Source: Shigella phage ChubbyThor. From it: DNA of 64,000 nt. The notes beneath the pieces were generated by a model, which saw nothing but the letters and a program-made list of their open reading frames with translations, had not been told where the DNA came from and ran no database searches. The position numbers and the translations under genes are program-made. Positions 7,231 to 49,232 of this stretch are shown here, piece after piece (positions within the stretch are counted from its first letter, which is position 1; the number at the start of each line of letters is the position of its first letter). The stretch lies in sequence record OL615013. The stretch is one strand, 5' to 3'.

Positions 7231-8992
7231 AACGCACCTCCGGCTCCACAGTTACAGCACCGATGCGAAGCACCTGGTTTTGTGTGGCCTGAATGTTCTG
7301 GTCAAGACCGTCTGGAGACACGATGATAGTCACTCCCTCGGTGTTGTAGTTGGATACTATGATGCGCTGGAGTTCAACAACGCCATTCACATAATCAACC
7401 GTTCCAACAGCTTGTACCAGATATTCCTTGGTCGTGTCTGCTGTACTCACCTTGTACATATTCAGGACACCACTGACATCGCGCATGTAGTAAGTGAAGT
7501 CGACCTCGGCCGGAAGCGGCTTAAACCCACTGATACGCACAGAACCAGATGCAATCGAGCGCCCATAATCGAACGTGAAGCTGTCTAGTACCCCATAGTC
7601 TGGCTTGAAGTGGCGCTTGTACTTCACGGAAGCGATGTTTGACGCTATCGATCTGTCCATGTCGGTGATGGCCGACTGCAACTGCTCTTTATCGAACAGT
7701 TCGTCGAATCCTTCCAGGTTCCCCAAGCCCCAGTTGACAACACCGTTCTTTACGACTGTCTTCAACTGCTCTTCGGTGTAGGCCGTGGAAGTCGGATCCC
7801 AGAACACGCGGGTGGTGACATCAACATAAGTCAGTTCAGCGTCGACAATCTTGGGTGTGATCGTACCCACATTGTACTTGTCCAAAGTCGCCACGATATC
7901 TGCCTTCTCAGCGTCGGACAGCGTCTCACCAACAGAAGGTACTACAGCAATGTAAACGTATCCAGAGTCGGGCGGAGATAGCGTGTCTCCACCATATGCT
8001 TTGGCGCGGGAGACGTTGGAGAACAGGCGCTCGGTCAACACAGCATAATCGACTTCGGCTACCGCCGCACCCTCAGCCTGATAAGCCAGCGGAGCAAGGC
8101 GCTTGATGTCTTCAATGCTCTCTGGGTCTGTACCGCCAGAAGAACGTTCTGACACCAGTTCAACATCTACAAGGTTGAAGCCCCCGATGGAAGACGCAGA
8201 GGACAAGGCAGTGATGTCATTGCCGTCTGCACCAGAGGTCTCCAGATACTGAAGGTACACGACGTTCCCGTCTTCTACTCGCTTGCAGATATAACCGTCG
8301 CCGAATTCAAACGTGTACATCCCGTCCAACCCCAGCTCAACGAAGTAGAGTTGTGCATACTGGCTCAAATCGAACGGGCTGACATATCGTGAGAAGGTAG
8401 ACCGCACGTCGGAGGTCTCAGATTCCTGCACCTGCACCACCATGTGGTTGATGTCCACGGAAGAAGACGGGATCACATAGGTAGAGATCGCGCTGCCTTC
8501 CACGTCATAGGACTTGTACAGCCAGTTGCCCTGCACGAGTTTGATGTTCTCGAACTTGTAAGAGCCGTCTACAAGAGAGGCGCTCACAGGTTGGTCAACC
8601 GTGAAGTTGTAGGATTTGCCATCCTTCGCTCCAATGAACATCGCCCGGCGGTCCATTACAATCGTATCTGGAGCCGTGCTGGCGTCATATGGAGTGACTG
8701 TGACGTTTGCGTACAGGAACGCCGCCTGGTAGTTGTGAGGGGTGTAAGACAAGAACCCCGCCGCCAGACCAACATTAGAACGCTGTTGAGCAGAGTGAAG
8801 ATGGCTTTCGCCATTCAGCATGTTCTGCATGAACCCGATAGAGTTGGCATCCGAGGCCAAGATACGCACGATTGCACTGAGACCAGAACCTTCAAAGTCA
8901 TAATCCTTGAAAGTTGGATCAGCTTTCATGCGCTTCTTGATAAGATACTCGAAAGCCCTGACATCGAGTGAAGGAACTGTTTGTGTGGCCAT
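7211..8992 (-). CDS. baseplate wedge protein (Baseplate J / T4 gp6-like)
   Basis: ORF track 7211..9007 (598 aa); most plausible start is ATG at 8992 preceded by GGAGA SD; size and position upstream of tail fibre genes; late-promoter-like box upstream. Confidence 0.4.
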   Translation of the reverse strand: MATQTVPSLDVRAFEYLIKKRMKADPTFKDYDFEGSGLSAIVRILASDANSIGFMQNMLNGESHLHSAQQRSNVGLAAGFLSYTPHNYQAAFLYANVTVTPYDASTAPDTIVMDRRAMFIGAKDGKSYNFTVDQPVSASLVDGSYKFENIKLVQGNWLYKSYDVEGSAISTYVIPSSSVDINHMVVQVQESETSDVRSTFSRYVSPFDLSQYAQLYFVELGLDGMYTFEFGDGYICKRVEDGNVVYLQYLETSGADGNDITALSSASSIGGFNLVDVELVSERSSGGTDPESIEDIKRLAPLAYQAEGAAVAEVDYAVLTERLFSNVSRAKAYGGDTLSPPDSGYVYIAVVPSVGETLSDAEKADIVATLDKYNVGTITPKIVDAELTYVDVTTRVFWDPTSTAYTEEQLKTVVKNGVVNWGLGNLEGFDELFDKEQLQSAITDMDRSIASNIASVKYKRHFKPDYGVLDSFTFDYGRSIASGSVRISGFKPLPAEVDFTYYMRDVSGVLNMYKVSTADTTKEYLVQAVGTVDYVNGVVELQRIIVSNYNTEGVTIIVSPDGLDQNIQATQNQVLRIGAVTVEPEVRYVQRSQ

Positions 8993-8995
8993 GTT

Positions 8996-9039
8996 TATCT
9001 CCATCACCTGAACTTGAATATGGTGTTGGAGATATTTAG
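8996..9039 (-). promoter_or_regulatory. late-promoter-like box CTAAATAtCtcc with SD-sequestering inverted repeat upstream of baseplate gene
   Basis: Minus-strand CTAAATA = plus 9033-9039; 7-bp inverted repeat plus 8996-9002 / 9028-9034; 3' arm is the GGAGATA SD of ATG 8992. Confidence 0.4.
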
Positions 9040-9341
9040 TGGGATGGGATTGAAACTTCCTCGCGCGTTATTTTATTATACTATCACTCGCTTCACTGCG
9101 TTCCGCTCGGATAACACCGCCTTGACAGGCAGTCCCATTCCACAGCCATGGAGGCTGCTTTTCGTTGTTCGTTAACACTCACAACTCAAAGGGCACAGCG
9201 ATACGATACAGTCTCTGAGTGGTGTAGAAAAGTAGTTTTTGCCTATTAATAAACCGCGCTCCTATTCGTTGGCCTTTAATTCAATAACACCTTCACCAAT
9301 ATAATAGTGCGGTCAATTAACCATATATTAAGGAACCTCTC

Positions 9342-9914
9342 ATGCACATCAACACTGCTATCACGAAACACATCATTCCTTTGTTAGAGAAATATGAAGG
9401 GAAGAAATCAAAGGATATTTCGTTTGAAGATATATCCGCCGAAGTGAAGCGCTTGACACGTAAAGAAGTCAATTTCCGCCGTGTCCCCCCATCTGCAGTA
9501 GATCGGGCAAAGTCAGATTTGAACACGGCTTCCACTTTCTCCTTTAATATCGATGCCACGGCGACATTGGTATCCGAATTAACGCAGTCGTCACAAGCCC
9601 GTCGCGATCGCTTCCGCCATTTATGTGTGGCCAACGACTATCCTAGCACCCGTGTCGGCATCAAGCTTGAAGCAATCCGCTCCGAGGTGTGCTTCACAGT
9701 GAACTACATCCTGGAGCCTGAAACCAGCAACATTTATTTCGCAGCCATCATCGGCTTCTATGGTACATCCATTAATGGTTGGGCTGAGCGCGTTGAATTA
9801 AAAGAGACTCTGAACAAACACAGCATCCCGTCCACCCATTATATGTCGCTGGCCGCCGCTCGCGAATATGTGTATCTGCTCGAGCGTGATGTGAAGTTAA
9901 AAGTGGTAAAATAA
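9342..9914 (+). CDS. hypothetical protein
   Basis: 190-aa ORF starting with ATG, first plus-strand gene after divergent intergenic region 9008-9341. Confidence 0.5.
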   Translation: MHINTAITKHIIPLLEKYEGKKSKDISFEDISAEVKRLTRKEVNFRRVPPSAVDRAKSDLNTASTFSFNIDATATLVSELTQSSQARRDRFRHLCVANDYPSTRVGIKLEAIRSEVCFTVNYILEPETSNIYFAAIIGFYGTSINGWAERVELKETLNKHSIPSTHYMSLAAAREYVYLLERDVKLKVVK

Positions 9915-12395: not shown

Positions 12396-12471
12396 GACGA
12401 TGTAGTTCAGTCGGTAGAACGGTGGACTGTTAATCCATATGTCACAGGTTCAAGTCCTGTCATCGTCGCCA
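12396..12471 (+). tRNA. tRNA-Asn (anticodon GTT)
   Basis: Hand-folded cloverleaf: acceptor GACGATG/CATCGTC, D-arm GTTC/GAAC, anticodon stem GTGGA/TCCAT with loop CTGTTAA, T-arm ACAGG-TTCAAGT-CCTGT, discriminator G, CCA encoded. Confidence 0.8.
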
Positions 12472-12727
12472 GACAATGGGTGTGAACGAAAGTGAATAGG
12501 CACGAAGTACGCGACCGACAAGCTCCAAGCCTCTGTCCAATAGCCGAACGGAATCTGAAGACGACGATAGTAACGCCCACCAAATTCAGAGTGTAGAGGC
12601 TACAGTAGTGCGCACCTCACGGGTTGCTACACCGGACACTCTGATACAAATCTGCCGCTGCGTGGATTAGCTGAGGAAGGATGGCCGATGTCCTCGAGTG
12701 TGGCCCAGCACGCAGCGGTAGACCAAA

Positions 12728-12811
12728 TGTGAGTGTGGCAGAGCGGTCGAATGCAGGAGACTGTAAATCTCCCCGTAACAGCGCGGTGGTTCGAATCCAT
12801 CCACTCACACC
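12728..12811 (+). tRNA. tRNA-Tyr (anticodon GTA), type II with long variable arm
   Basis: Acceptor GTGAGTG/CACTCAC, anticodon stem GGAGA/TCTCC loop CTGTAAA, T-arm GGTGG-TTCGAAT-CCATC, discriminator A, CCA encoded. Confidence 0.75.
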
Positions 12812-12952
12812 AAACACAGTAAGCGTTGCAGCCACGCTGTGTATCTGACCAGAAGGCACTGGTCGCCAGTTAACCAATCGGCGCTGAGAAGCGCGGGGAG
12901 TTGGGCTACGGCAGATCAAATGCTCAATCGGGTGTGAAGCCCGTTCAAATTT

Positions 12953-13036
12953 CGCGGGAGCCATAGGGGTTGGACAGTAGCCGACTGATCATCGGCGACG
13001 ATCACTGGACAGGTTCGAATCCTGATCTCCCGCTCC
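12953..13036 (+). tRNA. tRNA-like element, possibly tRNA-Ile (anticodon GAT) with irregular D/T arms
   Basis: Perfect 7-bp acceptor GCGGGAG/CTCCCGC + CCA; stem-loop GCCGA-CTGATCA-TCGGC fits an anticodon arm; TTCGAAT T-loop present but T-stem has a mismatch/extra nt; could not fold a canonical D-arm by hand. Confidence 0.4.
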
Positions 13037-13040
13037 AAAT

Positions 13041-13129
13041 TGGAAGGTTGCCCGAGAGGTTTAAGGGACTCGACTGCTAATCGAGTGGGGCTTTTAGCCC
13101 CCGAAGGTTCGAATCCTTCACCTTCCGCC
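13041..13129 (+). tRNA. tRNA-Ser (anticodon GCT), type II
   Basis: Acceptor GGAAGGT/ACCTTCC, 3-bp D-stem CCC/GGG, anticodon stem CTCGA/TCGAG loop CTGCTAA, variable-arm hairpin GGGGC/GCCCC, T-arm GAAGG-TTCGAAT-CCTTC, discriminator G, CCA encoded. Confidence 0.8.
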
Positions 13130-13540
13130 AAATTTGCGATCATCGCGGAAATCCCAGACGCGAGTGGAGGCCAGGGTGAAGACTGGCACATGGGCACTGA
13201 CGGCAAAGGTGTTCTACCTCCTGGAATTGGGTGGCCTGAATGGTAGGGAAAGCAGCCAAGCGTTGTGGGTTCAACTCCCACTCACCCAGCCCCAGATGGA
13301 ATGGGTCCATCATCGCAAATCATATTTTGGGCGTGACTTCCTGAAGAGTTAGAAGGTGTGCATGCCGACTCTCTCGTAATCGGGTGTTTAGGAAGTTAAG
13401 AAAATCGCGGCGAGGATAGTGAAATGCAAATAGCTTTCTCTACGCCGACGACTTCAGGTTCGATTCCTGACGCGCTCTCCCATAAGGCAGTACCAGTGCG
13501 AAGTGTGTAGTCTTTTCAACCCATCCCCATCGATGTGGTA

Positions 13541-30977: not shown

Positions 30978-33734
30978 ATGAAAATGCGCAAGTCCGAGCA
31001 CTTCATCCGCTCGTCGTCTTCCATTCAGGGGCAGGCGTTTAACGTCAAAATGAACGACAAGATGTTTGAGACTCTGTTCTCATCATTGTATCGTTACAAA
31101 GAGGCCGCAGCCCTGCGTGAGACCGTCTGTAACGCCATTGACTCCCATGGCATGCGTGATCGTATGCACCGCATGGTCGCATCCCACTACGCGCCTCTCA
31201 CTCCCCCTCCTGCCCGCCACAGCAAATATCTCGCGCCGAAGGGCACACGAGTTGTTGTGCATTTGCCTGATGACTTTGAGCCATGGCTGGAAATCCGTGA
31301 TTACGGTATCGGTCTGCCGCTTGAGAAGATCATCGGTGAAGCCATCCCAGCGCAGGAAGATGAGGTGCTGCTGGAAGGCAACATGGTCGTGAAGGAAGAC
31401 GAGATCCCCGATTCGGCCGAAGTCATCGGTATTCCAGGGTTCTACAATGGGTCTTTGGTGTTCCGTCGTGAAGACGGCGAGATCATTCGTGCGCCTGGAT
31501 TGTACACCACCCTCTTCCACAGTACGAAGGAAGAAGATGATGATCAGATTGGGGCATTCGGTCTTGGCTCCAAATCACCATTTGCGGTATCGGATTCGTT
31601 CACTGTGGAAAGCCGCATGGATGGTAAACTCCATCGCTTCCTGATGTACCTGAACGCCAAGCGCATCCCGACTGTTGATCTGATCACCAAAGATCTTGAA
31701 ACCCGTGATCCTAAGCCGGAAGACACCGATGAGTTCAACGGCATGACGGTGAAGATCCCGGTGAAGAACGCTCGTTTCTCTGCATTCTCCGATGAACTGG
31801 TCCGTCTTGGTCGTGTTATGCGCCCTGAACAACGCCCGGTTGTTGAGAACGCTTCATACCGCTTCAGCTGGGAAGATATCAGTTATGATTTCAAGGTCAA
31901 CAATACGTACATCCAGCCGAAAGGCCAGGGGAACACCCATTATGCTGTGATGGGCGGCGTGTCATACCCGATTGACCTGGACCAGCTGGACCCGGACACT
32001 GCTTCCATCATGAGCAAGTTCCCGTCGTCCTATACGTTCTTCGAACTCGGCTCGCTGAACGTACCGCCGTCGCGTGAAGACCTGTCGTATGACGAATTCA
32101 CGCGTGAGACGCTCTCTGAGGAGTTTAAGGGCACCGCCAATGCAATCTTGACAGAAAAGATGCGCGACCTGGAGTTGGCGTGTAAGCGTGGTCCTCTTGC
32201 CCTGTATATGGAGAAGGCAAGACTGAGCGAAATGTTCGGCAGCGGGTTCCGTAAGATGGTTGAAAAGGAATACCCGGCGGACAAGCGCTTCCACGATTCA
32301 TATTATCGTTACCCGCTGCCTGTTGAGATTGATCGCGATTATGACCATACCGCTCCGTTCAATGAGCTGTCATCGCCGTTCTCTATGGAGATCTTCTATG
32401 ACTGGGGTGAGTCCAGTACTTTGACCATTTCAGAAATCCAGAAGTGGATTGATCGTGGACAGCATGTTACTGTGGTGATCGAAGATAGTGTTCGTGCACG
32501 TAATCTGAAGATCAAGCAGCTGAAAGATACAGGAACGATGGTCATCGTGGCCAAGCCGAACACATCCTATGTCACCAAGCGCAACCAATCTAAGGACAAC
32601 CCTGCGTTCAATAATTCTCAGGCTCTCTATGATTTCTTTGAAACTTGGATTGGTAAAGAAGAAACGACGGTTGATTATCTGTGCTTCGCTGACAAGTTCG
32701 TCGATTGGCTGAGTGCGGTGCTGGAGCCTGCTGAAGTCAAGTTCATGAACGAACTGACGTATGTCACGCCTCCGGTCACCAAAGACCCTGGCCTGTTTCC
32801 GTTCACGTCCAGCAACTTCGACATAAAACAGTATGAAGAACTGACGGGCGACCAGATCTCAGATATTATCAACAAGGGCGAGCGCATCGTCTACATTGAG
32901 GTGTCTGGCCATGAGTGTATCCATCAGGTGATGGACAGAACGTTGACGGCTGCGGCGGCTCGGGGTATTCGCAAATCTCTGTACGAGCACGCTGTCGGTG
33001 CAGACGATGAAGGCAAGCCAGTGTATATCAGCGACATGCTGAACGTTCACAAGAGGATCTTCTTAGCTCGCCGTAAATCCGTGCCAATGATGAAGAAGTT
33101 TCCAGAGGTCTTCATCCCGATCGATGAAATTCTGAAGATCATGTTGGAAAACGTGAAGCCTATGATGGAGCGCGATAGCGCCAGGCGCATACTGGAATCA
33201 CACCGCCGCATGCGCCTTGGGGCGGACCGATTAAAATACGGGAGCCGTCTGGTTCATCAGGCGTTTGGTGATGTTGAAGATGATCGTTATGGCAAATTGG
33301 TCAGTCGTTACAACAAGTTAATGAAAGTTGTGGACGATATCTTGGATGAGCAGACTATACGTCATTACCAAAGCCTGGCGAAAGCCCCAGTGTCGATCCA
33401 TGATAAACGTCGTTTTAGTCATTTCCAAGACACGATAAGTTCTCTTAACGTGAATTTGTACGCCAACGAGCGTGACGAAAAGATCTTCCGTTCAGAACAT
33501 CAGATGCTACAGATCTTTGGTTACGCTTCGGATGTGTTGCGGTCTCATGGATTTACGCCGTTTGATATATCGAGGACTCCGTCATTGAAAGCAAGGCGGG
33601 AAAACCGATTGACCATTGAGCGTCACCGTGTTATCCGGTTCTTGAAAGAGAATTACAAACCAAGCGCCCTGAACCCGATTGAAAATTCTTCGGATTACTT
33701 GGACGTTATTTCAAATTCCATCATCAGGGCATAA
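30978..33734 (+). CDS. rIIA: rIIA protein (GHKL-type ATPase fold)
   Basis: 918 aa; blocks matching T4 rIIA as recalled: ALRETVCNAIDSH, IRDYGIGLP, GAFGLGSKSPFAVSDSF, LGSLNVPPSREDLSYDEFTRE. Confidence 0.9.
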   Translation: MKMRKSEHFIRSSSSIQGQAFNVKMNDKMFETLFSSLYRYKEAAALRETVCNAIDSHGMRDRMHRMVASHYAPLTPPPARHSKYLAPKGTRVVVHLPDDFEPWLEIRDYGIGLPLEKIIGEAIPAQEDEVLLEGNMVVKEDEIPDSAEVIGIPGFYNGSLVFRREDGEIIRAPGLYTTLFHSTKEEDDDQIGAFGLGSKSPFAVSDSFTVESRMDGKLHRFLMYLNAKRIPTVDLITKDLETRDPKPEDTDEFNGMTVKIPVKNARFSAFSDELVRLGRVMRPEQRPVVENASYRFSWEDISYDFKVNNTYIQPKGQGNTHYAVMGGVSYPIDLDQLDPDTASIMSKFPSSYTFFELGSLNVPPSREDLSYDEFTRETLSEEFKGTANAILTEKMRDLELACKRGPLALYMEKARLSEMFGSGFRKMVEKEYPADKRFHDSYYRYPLPVEIDRDYDHTAPFNELSSPFSMEIFYDWGESSTLTISEIQKWIDRGQHVTVVIEDSVRARNLKIKQLKDTGTMVIVAKPNTSYVTKRNQSKDNPAFNNSQALYDFFETWIGKEETTVDYLCFADKFVDWLSAVLEPAEVKFMNELTYVTPPVTKDPGLFPFTSSNFDIKQYEELTGDQISDIINKGERIVYIEVSGHECIHQVMDRTLTAAAARGIRKSLYEHAVGADDEGKPVYISDMLNVHKRIFLARRKSVPMMKKFPEVFIPIDEILKIMLENVKPMMERDSARRILESHRRMRLGADRLKYGSRLVHQAFGDVEDDRYGKLVSRYNKLMKVVDDILDEQTIRHYQSLAKAPVSIHDKRRFSHFQDTISSLNVNLYANERDEKIFRSEHQMLQIFGYASDVLRSHGFTPFDISRTPSLKARRENRLTIERHRVIRFLKENYKPSALNPIENSSDYLDVISNSIIRA

Positions 33735-33765
33735 TAGTCCTGTTAACCAACGTGGGAACTACAAG

Positions 33766-35328
33766 ATGAACAAGATTGACGAAAAGATCCTCAAGCATTT
33801 GAAGGCAGGCATGAGCCAGAGCGCAATTGCTACTCTGTTGGGCATACCCCGCTCGACTGTACAACGTGTTGCAGACACGGAACTCGGTGTTAACCCGTTA
33901 TCGCTGAAATCTCTGACCACTGAAGAGATTCAGCAGATTCAGGTGAAGAGCAAGGCTGGTGAAAGCAACCGCGCCCTGGCTGAGTTCTTTGCTGTAAGCG
34001 CCAAGACCATTGCTCGCGCTCTGCTGGTCCGGATTACTGAGGAGGAAAACAAGGTAACTGTGATCTCTCCTATCAAGCAGGAAGAGCAGGAAGTGTTCGA
34101 GGTCCAACCGGGCGGCACGGCCAAAGACAAAGATGACTCAGAATGGTATGTTGGGGCATATCTACCGAACCACAACAAGTATCTGTGTCTCACCAAAGAC
34201 GGTAATTTCACAGGGGCTTTCTTTGAAAAGTCTGAATTGACTCCTGTTGAAGGAAACAGCCGCGCTTTCGGCGTTGAAGCTATCGGTAAGATGGCAGAAA
34301 TTTCTGTGGCGCTGTCAGAAGGTGCGGATAAAGTTCCGAGCAACGTTGAAATCAGCGTTGTGGTTGACGGGGAAACTTATCCTGTTCGTGGATCTCTGGA
34401 TGCCCGTCGCCGTGTTGGTTACTTCGATGCCATCCTCGGCCGCACTCTGCGCCTGGCTCTGTCTTCTGTGGAATTCGCTGTCGCTATCAAAGACGTTGAA
34501 GAAGTGGCTGAAGACAAGAAGACCAAGCAGGACTTCGGCGCGAAAGACCTGGACGTGTTCCTGAACGAACACCAGATCCTGATTCTGCCTGACAGCGTTG
34601 TTATCGCGATTGATGGCAAGCCGGAAACGATCACCACTTCACATCCAGCATATGACCGCATCGTACAGGCGATCAAAGACAAAGACGTGAAGCTGGCATA
34701 CTCGCTGATGCGCCCTCGTGATGCCATCGCGAAGTACGCTGAAGGTCTGGTAGACGTGTCTGACAACCGTGTCCGCTGGTCTGGTCATGACATCACAGGC
34801 ACATCCATCGCCAAGCGTGTACTGGCGCTGATGCTGAAGGGTGACTTCCACAACCTGGACCGCATGGCGAAGTTTATGGATAAAATGTTCCAGAACCCGT
34901 CGGCTGCTCTGGTTCAGTCCGGGCGCATCTACGAGTTCATGGCGTACTCCGACATCGAGATTGACGACGATGGTGACATCATCCTCTACAAATCGGTGCG
35001 CGGGAACTACATGGACAAGTACAGCAACACGATCAGCAACGCCCCAGGCACTATCGTGCGCATGGCTCGCTCATTCGTGAACGACAACAACTCTGACCTG
35101 TGTTCATACGGTCTGCATGTGTGCTCCCTGGCCTACCTGAAACAGTGTTTCGGTTCTGTTGGCCAGCGCGTTGTTCGCTGTAAGCTGAACCCGAAAGATA
35201 TCGTGTCTATCACCAACGATTATGGCTCCAGTAAAATCCGCTGCTGCGAATACCTGGTGTTGGATGACTACACTGCTGAGTACAACCGCCAGCACAAGTC
35301 TATTGACGTCACTGGCCTGTACAAGTAA
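33766..35328 (+). CDS. rIIB: rIIB protein
   Basis: ORF track 33679..35328; ATG at 33766; N-terminal HTH-like region and C-terminal block NAPGTIVRMARSFVNDNNSDLCSYGLHVCSLAYLKQCFGS...RVVRCKLNPKDIVSI matching T4 rIIB as recalled. Confidence 0.85.
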   Translation: MNKIDEKILKHLKAGMSQSAIATLLGIPRSTVQRVADTELGVNPLSLKSLTTEEIQQIQVKSKAGESNRALAEFFAVSAKTIARALLVRITEEENKVTVISPIKQEEQEVFEVQPGGTAKDKDDSEWYVGAYLPNHNKYLCLTKDGNFTGAFFEKSELTPVEGNSRAFGVEAIGKMAEISVALSEGADKVPSNVEISVVVDGETYPVRGSLDARRRVGYFDAILGRTLRLALSSVEFAVAIKDVEEVAEDKKTKQDFGAKDLDVFLNEHQILILPDSVVIAIDGKPETITTSHPAYDRIVQAIKDKDVKLAYSLMRPRDAIAKYAEGLVDVSDNRVRWSGHDITGTSIAKRVLALMLKGDFHNLDRMAKFMDKMFQNPSAALVQSGRIYEFMAYSDIEIDDDGDIILYKSVRGNYMDKYSNTISNAPGTIVRMARSFVNDNNSDLCSYGLHVCSLAYLKQCFGSVGQRVVRCKLNPKDIVSITNDYGSSKIRCCEYLVLDDYTAEYNRQHKSIDVTGLYK

Positions 35329-44901: not shown

Positions 44902-45140
44902 ACCAAGAATTTGAAAACCTGTTTGAGCGTTGCTTTGAGCCTGCGTCTGTTGCGGGTTACATGGACCGCCTCAGTAAAGAGATCATATCCCGTCTGGTGG
45001 CGAAGGGTATCCATGTTGGTACGCTCGTGCGCAACGGTGACAACTTCATCATACAGATGTCCGACTGTCGTCATCGTTCTGGCATCTTCTACGTTAAATG
45101 CATTGACAACAGCATTATTGAATGGAGACAGTACGCATGA
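44898..45140 (+). CDS. hypothetical small protein
   Basis: 80-aa ORF. Confidence 0.4.
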   Translation: MNQEFENLFERCFEPASVAGYMDRLSKEIISRLVAKGIHVGTLVRNGDNFIIQMSDCRHRSGIFYVKCIDNSIIEWRQYA

Positions 45141-45736
45141 CCACATATGTAATCCATGGTGGCGATCTACTGAAAGCCGCCTGCAGCTTTAATCTGATCG
45201 ACATCTTTGCCCATGGTGCCAACTGCTGGTCTACCATGGGCGCGGGTATTGCCCTGCACATCGGCAACAACTTCCCAGCCCTACGCGAAGTCGATGCGAA
45301 CGATCCTCGTGGTCCAGAGCAACGCCTGGGTGGCATGACCTATGCATTCGACCACAGCAAGGGCGTTTGGGGCGCGAACCTCTACACTCAGTTCTACCCA
45401 GGTCCGAATGCCCGCATGCCGTCTGTCATCAGTTCTGTTCAGACCCTGTTTGAGCAGGTTCACGAAATTGTGGAAGCAACGGATGAAGAAACCGTCTATG
45501 TCGGCCTGCCTGCTATCGGCTGTGGTATCGGCGGCCTGAATCTCTACAGCGTAGTACGCCATATTAACCGGATCGCTGAAAGCGTGTATGAAGAGACCCG
45601 CCGTCGTGTCGTCCCAGTCTTCTATATCAGGGAAGGAGACGGGTTCGATGATGATCTGATGGAACTTTCTCATCTGGACGCAGAAGGTATCATGATTGTC
45701 GAAGATGAGCAAGAAATCATCGACGAGGAGGCGTAA
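45137..45736 (+). CDS. macro-domain protein (ADP-ribose binding / hydrolase)
   Basis: ORF track 45122..45736; ATG 45137 overlaps upstream stop; GDLL...IDIFAHGANCWSTMGAGIALHI and VYVGLPAIGCGIGGLNL match the two conserved macro-domain glycine-rich loops. Confidence 0.65.
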   Translation: MTTYVIHGGDLLKAACSFNLIDIFAHGANCWSTMGAGIALHIGNNFPALREVDANDPRGPEQRLGGMTYAFDHSKGVWGANLYTQFYPGPNARMPSVISSVQTLFEQVHEIVEATDEETVYVGLPAIGCGIGGLNLYSVVRHINRIAESVYEETRRRVVPVFYIREGDGFDDDLMELSHLDAEGIMIVEDEQEIIDEEA

Positions 45737-46369
45737 ATGTACAAGTCTAACTTCTTGGCAGTGGCCGACAGCGAGACTCTGGGGCGCTGGGATGATGCAG
45801 TTGTGTTGTCCTGGGCGCATACCATTGCCGACCTGACCAAGCGTTATACTCTTCAGCAGCTGGTTGAGGAGCGCACGACGTTCATTAAGCTGAATGTCAA
45901 AGAGCAGATCGAACTCGGTCGCGTGAAGGACCAGGGGACGGTAGAATGGTGGTTGGGGACGGGTAAACGTAACCCGTGTGATGCGGCTCGCGCCGTCAGT
46001 CTGTACCCGACTGAGCAGGACGTCTCTATCTTCCAGCTGGCCGATGAAATCCGCAAGGGTTGTCATCGTCTTGGGGTAGACCCGCGCTCGGTTGACTGGT
46101 GTGACCGTAACTTGTTCGATCTGCGCAAGGCTCAACACATCATTGAGGTGACGTGCAAGCAGGACTCCAACGAGCCTTGGGACTACCACCACACCTTCGA
46201 CATCGTGAGCTGGCTGAAGGGTGTCGGGCAACAAGATCGCTACGCTGGCATCAAGGCGTGGGAACTGGAAGGCATGGTCTATCATGATCCTCGTTATGAC
46301 GCCGCGCTTGATTGGCTTCGCATTCAAAAGACTATGGAAGACCTGATGGGTCTGGAGGTGGTAGGATGA
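45737..46369 (+). CDS. hypothetical protein, possible DEDD-type 3'-5' exonuclease
   Basis: 210 aa; N-terminal AVADSETLG resembles DxE(T) Exo I motif and YHHTFDIVS a possible Exo III; weak. Confidence 0.3.
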   Translation: MYKSNFLAVADSETLGRWDDAVVLSWAHTIADLTKRYTLQQLVEERTTFIKLNVKEQIELGRVKDQGTVEWWLGTGKRNPCDAARAVSLYPTEQDVSIFQLADEIRKGCHRLGVDPRSVDWCDRNLFDLRKAQHIIEVTCKQDSNEPWDYHHTFDIVSWLKGVGQQDRYAGIKAWELEGMVYHDPRYDAALDWLRIQKTMEDLMGLEVVG

Positions 46370-46671
46370 GCGCATTCTTCGAATTCGTCGGCGTCATAAC
46401 AGTGACGGTATTCCTCGTCGTTGTACTTGGTGTGATCTATTCCCTGTTTGTCCACCCAGTGTTCCAGGCCGTCAGTATCATGCGTTGGATCACAGCTTGC
46501 TCCTTGTCGGTGGGTAACAAGCCGCCGACCCTGAAAGAGAGATGGAGTTTCTTCAAATGGGGATATGAAATCGGTGGTCCCAGAACAACCCGCTACTCTA
46601 ACAACACCGGAGAATGGTGTGGGATAGGCCGATGGCAAGTATTCAAATCTGAAGAAGATGAAGCCCCGTGA
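46366..46671 (+). CDS. small membrane protein
   Basis: ORF track 46312..46671; ATG 46366 overlaps upstream stop; strongly hydrophobic N-terminus. Confidence 0.4.
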   Translation: MSAFFEFVGVITVTVFLVVVLGVIYSLFVHPVFQAVSIMRWITACSLSVGNKPPTLKERWSFFKWGYEIGGPRTTRYSNNTGEWCGIGRWQVFKSEEDEAP

Positions 46672-46682
46672 GGGGCTTTTCT
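46661..46682 (+). terminator. intrinsic terminator
   Basis: AAGCCCC-GTGA-GGGGCTT then TTCTAT; overlaps stop codon. Confidence 0.5.
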
Positions 46683-46713: not shown

Positions 46714-46947
46714 ATGAATCCTCGGGAAACTGCTATGACTACAGCAAGAAGTTACAGAAAGAACTTCAACATCGAAGGGATTGAGTTCTACCACCATTAC
46801 GCCCAGGACACCCATGGCACTGTATGCAACACATACATGCTTGACGGTCGCCCTGTAGGTTCCGATGAGTTCTATCGTGTTTTGCGCGAGTCTACAGAAG
46901 AATCCCTGTCTTACATTATCAATGCCAACGGATTGATTAAACCATGA
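46714..46947 (+). CDS. hypothetical small protein
   Basis: 77-aa ORF. Confidence 0.4.
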   Translation: MNPRETAMTTARSYRKNFNIEGIEFYHHYAQDTHGTVCNTYMLDGRPVGSDEFYRVLRESTEESLSYIINANGLIKP

Positions 46948-47630
46948 TCAACGTATCAATAAACGACCGAGATTTCGTCCACGCTGTTATGACAAACAAC
47001 AAAGACCCTCTTGCGTACAACGGGGAGAAGGTTACTCTGTTCTGGTCAGGCGGCGTGGACAGCACGTACATGCTATTCTGGCTGTTGGCTCACGGGTACG
47101 AAGTTCACACGATCTACTGCGAACTGGAGAACAACTCCTTCAAGGTGAAGCGTGAGAACTGGTCGCGCAAGAAGATCAGGGAATGGGTGACCACAAATTC
47201 GCCGAGGTTGAACACTCATTGGCATCACAGAGAAACCCCGATCAGCAAAATGAGCATCCAGTCTGGTGAGTTCCGGCCTTGTCTGGCTCAAGCCCCTGTG
47301 TGGTTGGTGAACACCCAATTCGCGGGTGGCCATTTTGATCGAGGACTGCCAAGAACTTATGTGATGGCATACGTCAACGGAGACGACGCTCTACACTGGA
47401 TCCCTGCCTTCAACAAGATCGTGGAGGGTTATAACATGTTGGCCAAAGACGGGCATGAGATCACCGTTCTCTTCCCTCTCGCCAGCATGAAGAAGACATG
47501 GTTCTACGAAGCCTTGTCGCCAATCTACGGGCTGATGACCTGGTGTGAATATCTCGTTCTGAAAAAGAACTGTGAATGCCCCGCTTGTGTCCGCCACCGT
47601 CATGAACTTTCCGTGTTTGAGGGGAAATAA
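46944..47630 (+). CDS. PP-loop ATP pyrophosphatase (QueC/ExsB-like)
   Basis: 228 aa; SGGVDS PP-loop motif near N-terminus; C-terminal Cys cluster WCEY...CECPAC like QueC zinc site. Confidence 0.55.
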   Translation: MINVSINDRDFVHAVMTNNKDPLAYNGEKVTLFWSGGVDSTYMLFWLLAHGYEVHTIYCELENNSFKVKRENWSRKKIREWVTTNSPRLNTHWHHRETPISKMSIQSGEFRPCLAQAPVWLVNTQFAGGHFDRGLPRTYVMAYVNGDDALHWIPAFNKIVEGYNMLAKDGHEITVLFPLASMKKTWFYEALSPIYGLMTWCEYLVLKKNCECPACVRHRHELSVFEGK

Positions 47631-47971
47631 TGAAACCGTCTGTTGTGGTGAACGACATCACCAGATTGATAAACCTTGTCAAAGATGTGTTCCCACAACA
47701 GGTGGATGTCGAGTATGTTGGGAAGAACGGGAAGTGCTATCAGGTTGCTCTGTTGTTGAAGCACGTGTACCCTCAAGCAGAGATCCATTACAGTCAGATT
47801 GAAGGCCACGTGTACACTCTGATTGATGGGAATTATTACGACATCGACGGCATCCACTTCAGTGTGCCACCGGACACGTGTTTGCTCGAACACAACAGAG
47901 GCCACAAACCACATCGCTGGCATAAAGGATTTGTGAACGTACCGATTTTAGAATGGTTGAGGAGACCATAA
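47630..47971 (+). CDS. hypothetical protein
   Basis: 113-aa ORF, start overlaps upstream stop. Confidence 0.4.
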
Positions 47972-48531
47972 TGGCAGGAATTGTGAAGTATCTGGGCGAC
48001 ACCCACCTTGGGCACAAGAAGATCTTCAAGCCCCGTGGGTTCGACACACAGGAAGCCCACGACGCTGCGGTCATTGACAGTATCTATCAGGGACTGAAGT
48101 CCCGAGACGTCCTTGAACTTGCAGGCGACATCTGCTTCATCGGGGCTGAGGGGTTCATTCGCCTGATGCGCGAGGGTGCCAAGCGGAACATTGATGAGTT
48201 CAAGCGCCGCCCAGTTCCCGATGACTGGCGTCCGAACTTTATCATCAGGGTGGCGCAAGGCAACCATGACAGCTTCAAGATGTTGATGCAGCTGTATCAA
48301 GAGGGATGGATTAGCTCCTTCGGTGCGATGTATGAGCGTGACACTCCGGTTGGTCGTGTGCTGACCACTCACGTTCCTTATCAATTAGACCGCTGGGCGT
48401 ATAATATCCATGGTCATCTTCACGGCGAAATGCGTGAAGAACGCGAATACCTGAACTGCAGCTGGGAACAATTCAAGCGCCCTGTGACATTGGCCGAGCT
48501 GCTCTATACCAATCTGGGGATTGAAATATGA
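47971..48531 (+). CDS. calcineurin-like metallophosphoesterase
   Basis: ORF track 47953..48531; motifs GDTHLGH, GDICF, GNHD, HGHLH. Confidence 0.55.
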
Positions 48532-48845
48532 AAATTTATTTTCCTGGTCAGAAAGTGCCTTCTGAAGTGGAGAAGGTGGAGTTCACGGGTTATCGGGGAG
48601 GAGATCCCAACTTGCGTTTCTCCTCTCCTTGTATCGTGAAAAGAACAGAAACGGGCTATTACGTCAGACCAATCGTATTGATGGGCAGCGTGATGACATT
48701 AAGAGCAACCGCCGACCATGTTTCTATACAAGGCAGCCCAGAGATTACATGTGGGATAACCCACATGAACTGCAAGCCGATTATCCCGACATGGTTGATT
48801 ATTGGTGTGCTTTCTGTTTTGGCTCTGAAAGGGGTATTGTTATGA
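48528..48845 (+). CDS. hypothetical protein with C-terminal TM helix
   Basis: 105-aa ORF. Confidence 0.4.
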
Positions 48846-49180
48846 AAAAGCCGCGCATCACAGGACACCAACTCTCGGTTCTCTACGGGATAGAGAACTT
48901 TGAGAAAGGTCATCGCCGTTATGGTGAACGGTACTTGCATCCCAAATCCTGGGCCAATGACAAGGGCAACACCGTCTGGACGTTCCAGGTATGCCCGAAC
49001 GCTGGTGGTTTCACCTCCGTCAAAGGCGATCCATGGGACACCCGCACAGGGGCTTCCCTGCTCGCCAAGGGGTTGATCGAACCAGCTGGCTCAATGGTTC
49101 ATGACGGTTCGTACGTGAACTGGCCGAACACTGAGGTGACGTTCTACCGCCTGACTGAACTCGGTAAGTCTTATCTCTGA
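48842..49180 (+). CDS. hypothetical protein
   Basis: ATG 48842 inside ORF-track entry 48629..49180. Confidence 0.4.
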   Translation: MKKPRITGHQLSVLYGIENFEKGHRRYGERYLHPKSWANDKGNTVWTFQVCPNAGGFTSVKGDPWDTRTGASLLAKGLIEPAGSMVHDGSYVNWPNTEVTFYRLTELGKSYL

Positions 49181-49202: not shown

Positions 49203-49232
49203 AGAAGGGGGAGTATATACTTCCCCTTAGTT
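49203..49232 (+). terminator. long GC-clamped hairpin (terminator-like)
   Basis: AAGGGGGAGTATA/TATACTTCCCCCTT; flanked by TTATTGAAGAAG motif. Confidence 0.4.

Follow-up and report, generated by a model that had tools for sequence, protein, structure and literature searches.

A QueC/Cap9-like PP-loop protein of Shigella phage ChubbyThor belongs to a near-viral family and stands outside the 7-deazaguanine pathway

Enzymes of the QueC family have recently been shown to act beyond the synthesis of 7-cyano-7-deazaguanine (preQ0): in anti-phage defence, Cap9 links deazaguanine to the N-terminus of a protein, and the same has been proposed for QatC. The canonical QueC catalytic signature was defined by Libby et al., with Y35, R99, Y131 and Y189 being essential in E. 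coli QueC (PMC13329287), and Cap9 holds the conjugated deazaguanine via D117, which hydrogen-bonds N1 and N2, via the stacking residue Y115, and via R86 and the L83 backbone (bioRxiv 10.1101/2025.04.06.647259; PMC13279940). Singleton phage proteins labelled 'QueC-like', from phages ECML-4 (YP_009101458) and Muddy (YP_008408902), were flagged by Hutinet et al. in 2019 as lying outside the QueC sequence-similarity cluster (PMC6884629). A 2026 survey of PF06508, in which the ten largest clusters were analysed and seven discussed, does not deal with singleton proteins of viruses in its text (PMC13329287). Here we describe a QueC-like protein of 228 amino acids encoded at positions 46944-47630 of a 64,000-nucleotide stretch of Shigella phage ChubbyThor (record OL615013; the whole stretch is called the window below). 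The gene is not mentioned in a 2024 review of the Ackermannviridae.

The protein has a QueC fold, an intact ATP-pyrophosphate loop (PP-loop) and a C-terminal four-cysteine zinc site. The SGGVDS PP-loop occupies residues 35-40 (47046-47063) and the zinc-type cysteines are C201, C210, C212 and C215 (47544-47588), so that both features named in a first-pass annotation of the window are present; the invariant Y143...D147-D148 is found at 47370-47387. Pfam QueC (PF06508) scored 28.1 bits against a cutoff of 22 over residues 32-80 only, which is the PP-loop segment, the NCBIfam QueC equivalog TIGR00364 reached 18.8 bits against a cutoff of 150.3, and the sole PADLOC match was the generic QueC model (residues 28-85, E=5.8e-6). 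Searches with the single sequence detected the PP-loop alone, and those against the PDB gave PP-loop or chance matches and were insufficient; profiles were therefore needed for the remote comparisons of this protein and of a metallophosphoesterase encoded downstream of it. A profile of 57 family sequences gave matches at E=4e-8 to Cap9 and at E=5e-8 to QueC that extend over almost the entire length and take in the zinc ribbon, hhalign aligned the family with E. coli QueC at 93% probability over 186 columns, and the AlphaFold2 model had a pLDDT of 84.6 and a pTM of 0.87. Given that the matches to Cap9 and QueC are nearly full-length and include the zinc ribbon, this is a genuine QueC-family protein and not merely a generic PP-loop ATPase. 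In the comparison with QueC, QatC, Cap9 and TilS/TtcA that the first-pass annotation had proposed, the protein is by profile and predicted fold closest to Cap9 and QueC, not to the tRNA enzymes.

In the 57-member alignment G37, D39 and S40 of the PP-loop are invariant, as are Y143, D147, K184, C201, C212 and C215, and the signature blocks are WSGGxDST, NNxxKxxRE, LxQxPxW, GYVMNDDA, FPLxKxxK and TWCE...CGxCxxC. The SGGxDS loop is thus shared with canonical QueC, and the C(x)8CxxCxxC zinc site of QueC has its counterpart in C201-x8-C210-x-C212-xx-C215 (family consensus WCE-x(n)-C-G-x-C-x-x-C, aligned with the QueC and Cap9 cysteines). The catalytic signature, in contrast, is largely altered. The QueC motif YxQxHxxE is replaced by Y-x-x-I/L-x-N-N-x-x-K-x-x-R-E, in which the Gln and His are gone and only the distal Glu may correspond, and VPxRN is replaced by L-x-Q-x-P-x-W with no conserved Arg among the 57 sequences; in the Ackermannviridae clade, however, R111 is invariant, lies one column away from Cap9 R86 and could be a local equivalent of the VPxRN Arg. 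The loop bearing YPDC is 4-6 residues shorter, with the Asp kept (D147) and the Tyr position falling in the deletion, Y189 is replaced by Glu as in Cap9, the first zinc cysteine stands in 'CE' and not in 'CY', and the Y35 column holds Ile/Leu or Tyr depending on the alignment. Moreover, canonical QueC is linked to queD/queE, whereas the phage gene is unlinked and its family essentially viral.

Cap9 of the type IV cyclic oligonucleotide-based anti-phage signalling system (CBASS; PDB 9nto) shares with the phage protein a minimal QueC-like fold of ~190-230 amino acids, the SGGxDS loop, a zinc site of the 'CE...CxxCxxC' type and a PL..K motif. The two proteins are, however, only 16% identical, F-x-Q of Cap9 corresponds to I/L-x-N-N, the RN motif is not conserved family-wide, and whereas Cap9 belongs to a defence operon, the phage gene has no CD-NTase, Cap10 (TGT-like) or Cap11 gene nearby. 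In the HMMER alignment the family-invariant D147 falls on Cap9 D117, Y115 falls in a 4-residue deletion with the invariant Y143 four residues upstream, and the R86 column is variable across the family. Because D147 is kept while the Tyr loop, the R86 column and YxQxHxxE are altered, the pocket appears remodelled but may take a guanine-like ligand. QatC of QatABCD is likewise a QueC-family protein with a remodelled base-recognition site, but it has ~400 amino acids with N- and C-terminal extensions, carries T278/T280 at the Y/D positions and invariably occurs together with qatA, qatB and qatD, whereas the 228-amino-acid phage protein has phage early-gene neighbours. The singletons of Hutinet et al. 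belong to the same family as the ChubbyThor protein (the ECML-4 protein is 60.5% identical to it and the Muddy protein is a structural relative), and the verdict is the same, namely that they are not isofunctional QueC. The protein is hence an already noticed, as yet uncharacterised form of a familiar enzyme family, listed in PHROGs as phrog_1550 'QueC-like' (E=3.6e-73); new in relation to Hutinet et al. are the family size, its near-viral restriction, the replication-module context, the Cap9/QueC residues that are retained or lost, and an accessory status independent of the phosphoesterase.

The family is large and is found almost only in viral contigs. A profile made from 20 close homologs and searched against 1.84 billion cluster representatives matched 1148 of them at E<=1e-3 and 474 at E<=1e-10, the best 150 being mostly ~200 amino acids long and near full length from the PP-loop through the Cys cluster. 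The protein was present in 195 of 50,697 phage records, essentially all Ackermannviridae-type, with identities to the ChubbyThor protein of ~62% in Kuttervirus, 58-60% in Klebsiella and Serratia phages of the IME250 type, 36% in Erwinia phage phiEa2809 and 33% in Serratia phages KNP4 and 3M. Queries with divergent members added Vibrio phages YC, 1.244.A and 1.255.O, Pseudomonas phages PS119XW and BRkr, and the Ralstonia jumbo phages RSL2 and FLC4-5C, structural relatives in BFVD were found in Pseudomonas phage Noxifer, Ralstonia phage RSF1 and Mycobacterium phage Muddy, and IMG/VR contributed 58 loci, many of them on contigs of 100-360 kb. Among 185,579 bacterial and archaeal species (one genome each) there was one full-length match and one fragment; the full-length match has IS3 transposases and a WD40 protein beside it, a context that is uninformative. 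Outside the Ackermannviridae the neighbours include DnaB, FEN, SNF2, RecA, PolB, RFC-like AAA ATPases (with inteins), NUDIX, dCMP deaminase, ThyA, DHFR, TAGT and methylases. All-against-all BLAST clustering of 706 neighbouring open reading frames (ORFs) and a Pfam census of 149 found no partner gene recurring across distant lineages, the neighbours being lineage-specific. Inteins or homing-endonuclease inserts were seen in replication genes beside distant homologs: an AAA/RFC-like ATPase contains Hint and Hom_end (L020:6442-8475), and a DnaB-like helicase contains an intein splicing domain (L018:2672-4003).

Taken together, the protein is rather probably a QueC/Cap9-like PP-loop ATP pyrophosphatase of a large near-viral family that works outside both the deazaguanine pathway and a phosphoesterase module, with ATP-dependent activation of a carboxylate or carbonyl as its presumed reaction. 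By analogy with QueC and Cap9, ATP would serve to activate, by adenylation, the carboxylate (or carbonyl) group of a small heterocyclic, possibly guanine-like substrate, and the activated group would then be passed to ammonia or an amine. Since the pocket is remodelled, the handling of the substrate probably differs from that in canonical preQ0 synthesis. A guanine-like base, perhaps 7-carboxy-7-deazaguanine (CDG) made by the host, is nevertheless possible because the Asp that hydrogen-bonds deazaguanine N1/N2 is kept, and the lack of phage queD and queE is no argument against CDG as substrate given that the enterobacterial host makes CDG and that Cap9 also uses the host pool.

The gene does not belong to a 7-deazaguanine pathway. 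The Shigella phage vB_SboS_Gloob (Ackermannviridae, Agtrevirus), whose complete genome of 158.7 kb was used as a proxy for genome-wide searches in ChubbyThor, is 97% identical to the region in question over 12 kb, and the entire window is collinear with it, with a shifted origin. Searches by tblastn of the window and of the whole Gloob genome with E. coli QueD, QueE, FolE, Tgt and QueA and with DpdA, FolE, QueD, QueE and Gat-QueC of phage 9g gave nothing below E=0.26, a match that was the PP-loop of the QueC-like gene itself, and no deazaguanine genes are among the Gloob annotations. The absence of FolE-, QueD-, QueE- and DpdA-like genes noticed nearby in the first-pass annotation therefore holds in the window and extends to the Gloob genome, and a preQ0 gene set elsewhere in the genome, which would have made this ordinary 7-deazaguanine biosynthesis, was looked for there and rejected. 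Nor were queD, queE, folE or dpdA families among the best 25 of 71 Pfam families in the 149 neighbours from 30 other viral loci. Every phage known to have 7-deazaguanine in its DNA encodes DpdA (PMC10516641), and since no DpdA match was obtained such DNA is unlikely in ChubbyThor, with the caveat that divergent DpdA subfamilies could escape tblastn. A role in the thymidine hypermodification of the Ackermannviridae (5-NeOmdU) was also considered and rejected, given that 5-NeOmdU synthesis of ViI was reconstituted from gp67/gp243, gp247 and gp226 alone (PMC8989533) and that the gene is missing in phage Ag3 and in the Dickeya Limestonevirus phages.

The likeness to Cap9 raises the idea that the family uses the host CDG pool or another guanine-like carboxylate in the manner of Cap9 or QatC, either as an ATP-dependent ligase that conjugates the base to a protein of phage or host (for instance to its N-terminus) or to nucleic acid, or by draining CDG. 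The family shares with Cap9 the 'CE' start of the zinc motif and the Asp that reads the Watson-Crick edge of deazaguanine (PMC13279940; bioRxiv 10.1101/2025.04.06.647259), dependence on host CDG is a property of Cap9 as well, so that the absence of queD/queE does not count against it, and the gene lies in a variable early region near a macro/DarG-like gene. On the other hand, the 4-residue deletion takes in the position of the stacking Tyr (Cap9 Y115) and the family as a whole does not conserve the R86 column, no conserved partner ORF or neighbour with a Gly-rich N-terminus was found, no Cap10/TGT-like gene was detected by tblastn in the window or the Gloob genome, and family members are mostly found among replication genes and not among known anti-defence genes. 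We regard this possibility as unlikely, though not negligible. The 77-amino-acid ORF upstream of the gene was considered as a QatB-like substrate and is not supported as such: an unrelated 98-amino-acid ORF replaces it in Kuttervirus and neither has a Gly-rich N-terminus.

The second idea to be weighed is that the gene works together with its neighbours. The early region is laid out as follows (positions in the window, all features on the plus strand).

5' of the macro-like gene, plus strand: topoisomerase II subunits and several small ORFs
45122-45736, plus strand: macro-like Tk.4/DarG-like gene
45737-46369, plus strand: DexA-like exonuclease, followed by a membrane ORF of 119 amino acids
46661-46678, plus strand: terminator-like hairpin, AAGCCCC-GTGA-GGGGCTT then TTTCTATAT, overlapping the stop of the 119-amino-acid membrane ORF
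46714-46947, plus strand: ORF of 77 amino acids, phrog_16682, function unknown, its stop overlapping the start of the QueC-like gene (ATGA)
46944-47630, plus strand: QueC-like PP-loop ATP pyrophosphatase, 228 amino acids, virus-specific subfamily, phrog_1550
47630-47971, plus strand: Phage_YunG-like protein, 113 amino acids, PF24591, phrog_4814, function unknown
47971-48531, plus strand: minimal calcineurin-like metallophosphoesterase, 186 amino acids, phrog_547
48528-48845, plus strand: DUF7618 protein, PF24594, phrog_6872, its start overlapping the phosphoesterase stop
48842-49180, plus strand: ORF of 112 amino acids, phrog_4677, function unknown, last gene of the transcription unit
49205-49228, plus strand: terminator-like hairpin closing the transcription unit
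3' of the hairpin at 49205-49228, plus strand: ORF of 113 amino acids, dCMP deaminase, membrane-flanked-domain (bPH-like) protein

The stop and start codons in the six-gene block overlap by 4 nucleotides (ATGA) or 1 nucleotide (TAATG). Since they overlap in this way between two hairpins, the six genes appear to form one translationally coupled early transcript; the hairpin at 46661-46678 would mark the start of the transcription unit, and co-transcription of the tightly packed genes before the hairpin at 49205-49228 is plausible. The first-pass annotation had described the QueC-like gene as co-operonic with an unknown of 113 amino acids and a metallophosphoesterase, downstream of macro and exonuclease-like genes. 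The location is as described, the ORFs are real and the overlaps and hairpins make a common transcript plausible, but the 113-amino-acid protein belongs to the PF24591 Phage_YunG-like family (E=1.3e-43) and the phosphoesterase start had to be revised. The longest phosphoesterase ORF starts at 47953 (192 amino acids), and the true start is almost certainly 47971, since a TAATG overlap joins it to the end of YunG, a GAGGAG ribosome-binding site precedes it by 7 nucleotides and all homologs begin with MAG.

The proposed functional combination of the PP-loop protein, the 113-amino-acid ORF and the phosphoesterase was not borne out, and the QueC-like gene forms no conserved module with the phosphoesterase. 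Within the Ackermannviridae all four presence states occur (both genes, QueC-like only, phosphoesterase only, neither). The QueC-like, YunG and phosphoesterase genes are all present in Kuttervirus and in some Agtrevirus phages. In Serratia phage IME250 and Klebsiella phage Menlow the phosphoesterase directly follows the QueC-like gene, YunG being absent from loci of this type, and a related locus (L013) has one ORF of 153 amino acids in between. In Serratia phage 3M the gene order is inverted. In Erwinia phage phiEa2809 no phosphoesterase adjoins the QueC-like gene, and in EspM4VN (L003 6695-7272) the phosphoesterase is frameshifted into ORFs of 47 and 121 amino acids, which could reflect a pseudogene or a sequencing error, next to an intact QueC-like gene. 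YunG and the phosphoesterase are found with no QueC-like gene in Ag3, P46FS4 and two IMG/VR relatives (L079, L080), and the Dickeya Limestonevirus phages lack both genes, a 24-codon remnant of the phosphoesterase being all that is left.

The deletion in Ag3 is a clean one of 900 bp (window 46730-47629 compared with Ag3 locus L002 4700-4740) that removed the 77-amino-acid ORF together with the QueC-like gene. Ag3 keeps the hairpin at 46661-46678 and the next 50 nucleotides, with the spacer and the first 14 nucleotides of the 77-amino-acid ORF joined to the YunG start via 6 unrelated bases, and because these remnants remain the gene was lost in Ag3 and not gained in ChubbyThor. The QueC-like gene is accordingly a dispensable accessory gene of the early region, lost in Ag3 and also missing from L079 and L080, with the PP-loop lost in 3M. 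The 3M copy, labelled 'alpha hydrolase' (L078 4118-4681, minus strand), keeps YCNGDDA, FPLVGMKK and the Cys cluster, has no SGGxDS and has unrelated sequence as its N-terminal third, and would be either a decayed copy or a non-catalytic derivative. In a literature search no paper was found that ties 'alpha hydrolase' to the Ackermannviridae.

The genes also differ in their rates of change. Between Agtrevirus and Kuttervirus the identity is 62% for the QueC-like protein against 91-96% for its two neighbours (YunG 92-96%, phosphoesterase 91-94%) and 94% for DexA, and the low value points to fast divergence or allele exchange confined to the QueC-like gene. Outside the Ackermannviridae a phosphoesterase was found within 6 kb of the QueC-like gene in 1 of ~35 non-redundant lineages, and a QueC-like gene (any of the 57 family members) within 5 kb of the phosphoesterase in 0 of 21 loci; one 206-kb jumbo contig (IMGVR_UViG_3300009508_000011; L053, L093) has both families ~87 kb apart. 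Three QueC-like tblastn queries gave 195-221 phage records, with none of the hosts typical of non-Ackermannviridae phosphoesterase carriers. Given that the genes assort independently and do not co-localise outside the Ackermannviridae in either direction, their adjacency indicates shared ancestry and collinearity, not a conserved unit. The phosphoesterase is a separate, widely distributed small phage enzyme that lies next to the QueC-like gene only because the variable early region from DexA to the dCMP deaminase is collinear.

A module of QueC-like ATPase, YunG-like protein and metallophosphoesterase that work on one substrate (adenylation or amidation followed by phosphoester cleavage, for counter-defence or an RNA-repair-like process) is for these reasons quite improbable. 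It is favoured by the adjacency with overlapping codons between two hairpins, by the occurrence of both genes in the DexA-to-dCMP-deaminase region of Kuttervirus, Agtrevirus, IME250/Menlow-type phages and Miltonvirus, and by their joint absence in the Dickeya Limestonevirus phages; the four presence states, the YunG-less loci, the lack of co-localisation elsewhere and the unequal rates all speak against it. Of the roles offered in the first-pass annotation, a nucleotide-adenylating/amidating chemistry fits the fold of the PP-loop protein by itself, although not as a module, and for a signal-degrading counter-defence set or an RNA-repair-like system nothing specific was found.

Several points nonetheless weigh against the reading of the protein as a stand-alone member of a near-viral QueC/Cap9-like family. 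The adenylation or ligation chemistry is deduced from the fold and the PP-loop alone, and the pocket may be less remodelled than the motif comparison suggests, given that D147 corresponds to Cap9 D117, that Y143 is nearby and that the Ackermannviridae clade has R111. The locus scans were pattern-based and required exact peptide words, so that distant relatives are under-sampled. In ChubbyThor the QueC-like and phosphoesterase genes are probably co-transcribed and translationally coupled, and the two stay ~0.4-1.5 kb apart across Ackermannviridae genera that are only 33-60% identical in the QueC-like protein, even when inverted in 3M, which is weak evidence for some linkage; it is because of this persistent proximity that the module keeps a small share of the probability.

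The neighbours themselves gave some further observations. The YunG-like protein is 92-99% conserved across Agtrevirus and Kuttervirus. The phosphoesterase has all five metallophosphoesterase motifs (DxH, GD, GNH[DE], H, GHxH) in the form GDTHLGH, GD, GNHD, H and GHLHG, with D16/H18, D59, N104/H105, H140 and H155/H157 invariant in 11 homologs, and its AlphaFold2 model, although moderate (pLDDT 75), has the metallophosphoesterase fold. Pfam Metallophos (PF00149) gave no match at E<=0.1; the protein is recognised by phrog_547, and its profile matched aq_1665 weakly. It is related to minimal metallophosphoesterases such as aq_1665 and the phage T5 'Ser/Thr phosphatase' (phrog_547), and its resemblance to the nuclease PdeM/MPE is weak (TIGR04123 PdeM, E=0.0011). 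The family occurs in 561 phage records including T5-like phages, and the label 'Ser/Thr protein phosphatase' is a transferred annotation. In Gloob the phosphoesterase ORF (8953-9627) has 224 amino acids compared with 192 in the window and reads past the stop used in the window, so the Gloob record has no separate DUF7618 call. Two records stood out by their host labels, OR844942 'Enterococcus phage Efm 3-10', which matches a QueC-like member, and MN871475 'Pseudomonas phage Pa-sanjiao', which matches the YunG-like protein; these labels are probably wrong or the samples mixed.

Upstream, the Tk.4-like protein (45122-45736) gave weak but consistent matches of the macro/DarG type (NCBIfam DarG E=1.8e-8, PADLOC DarG E=1.7e-7, Pfam Macro E=0.007) and may be an early protein that removes ADP-ribose. 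The window also has three tRNA genes at 12396-13130, namely Asn(GTT), Tyr(GTA) and Ser(GCT), of which Asn and Tyr belong to the queuosine (GUN) group; a tRNA-Met(CAT) that Gloob has by annotation at 138318 was not detected in the window, Gloob 138066-138676 having no aligned counterpart there. Gloob 32780-35295, a region outside the window, carries by annotation adjacent Nampt-like (gp119) and PRPS-like (gp120) genes that resemble the NARP1 NAD+ reconstitution pair Namat/Adps.

About as improbable as the module is a base-modifying PP-loop enzyme of the TilS/ThiI/MnmA/TtcA type acting on tRNA, DNA or dNMPs. Such a role would be in keeping with the replication, nucleotide-metabolism and DNA-modification genes found around the family (TAGT, ThyA, dCMP deaminase) and with the three phage tRNA genes. 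However, ~200 amino acids are too few to accommodate an RNA-binding domain such as THUMP or the C-terminal domains of TilS, no recognisable extra domain or fusion was found in the long family members, the profiles group the protein with QueC and Cap9 and not with tRNA enzymes, and the four cysteines fit the structural zinc site of QueC and not the three-cysteine Fe-S site of TtuA/NcsA. An ordinary preQ0 synthase that supplements host QueC and raises queuosine in the phage tRNA-Asn and tRNA-Tyr can largely be dismissed, since, although Pfam QueC is above its gathering threshold, both tRNAs are queuosine substrates and CDG could come from the host, the score is far below the equivalog cutoff, the essential R99 and Y189 are replaced, Y131 falls in the deleted loop segment and the Y35 column is alignment-dependent (PMC13329287), the family is nearly absent from cellular genomes and Hutinet et al. 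left it outside the QueC cluster (PMC6884629).

These results bear on how such phage genes are read. An automated label of 'QueC-like queuosine biosynthesis' or of '7-cyano-7-deazaguanine synthase' is no evidence that a phage makes 7-deazaguanine DNA or queuosine, and the nearness of the QueC-like gene to the phosphoesterase is not to be taken as a pathway. If the doubtful idea that the family draws on host CDG were true, it would provide the first viral counterpart of protein deazaguanylation, and consumption of CDG would disarm type IV CBASS, which has Cap9, as well as QatABCD, which has QatC, if the latter is CDG-dependent. With its ATP loop, zinc site and base-reading Asp kept and its pocket rebuilt, the viral QueC-like branch is a concrete biochemical target, through which a novel ligation of a nucleobase or carboxylate during infection, or a means of countering CDG-dependent immunity, could come to light.

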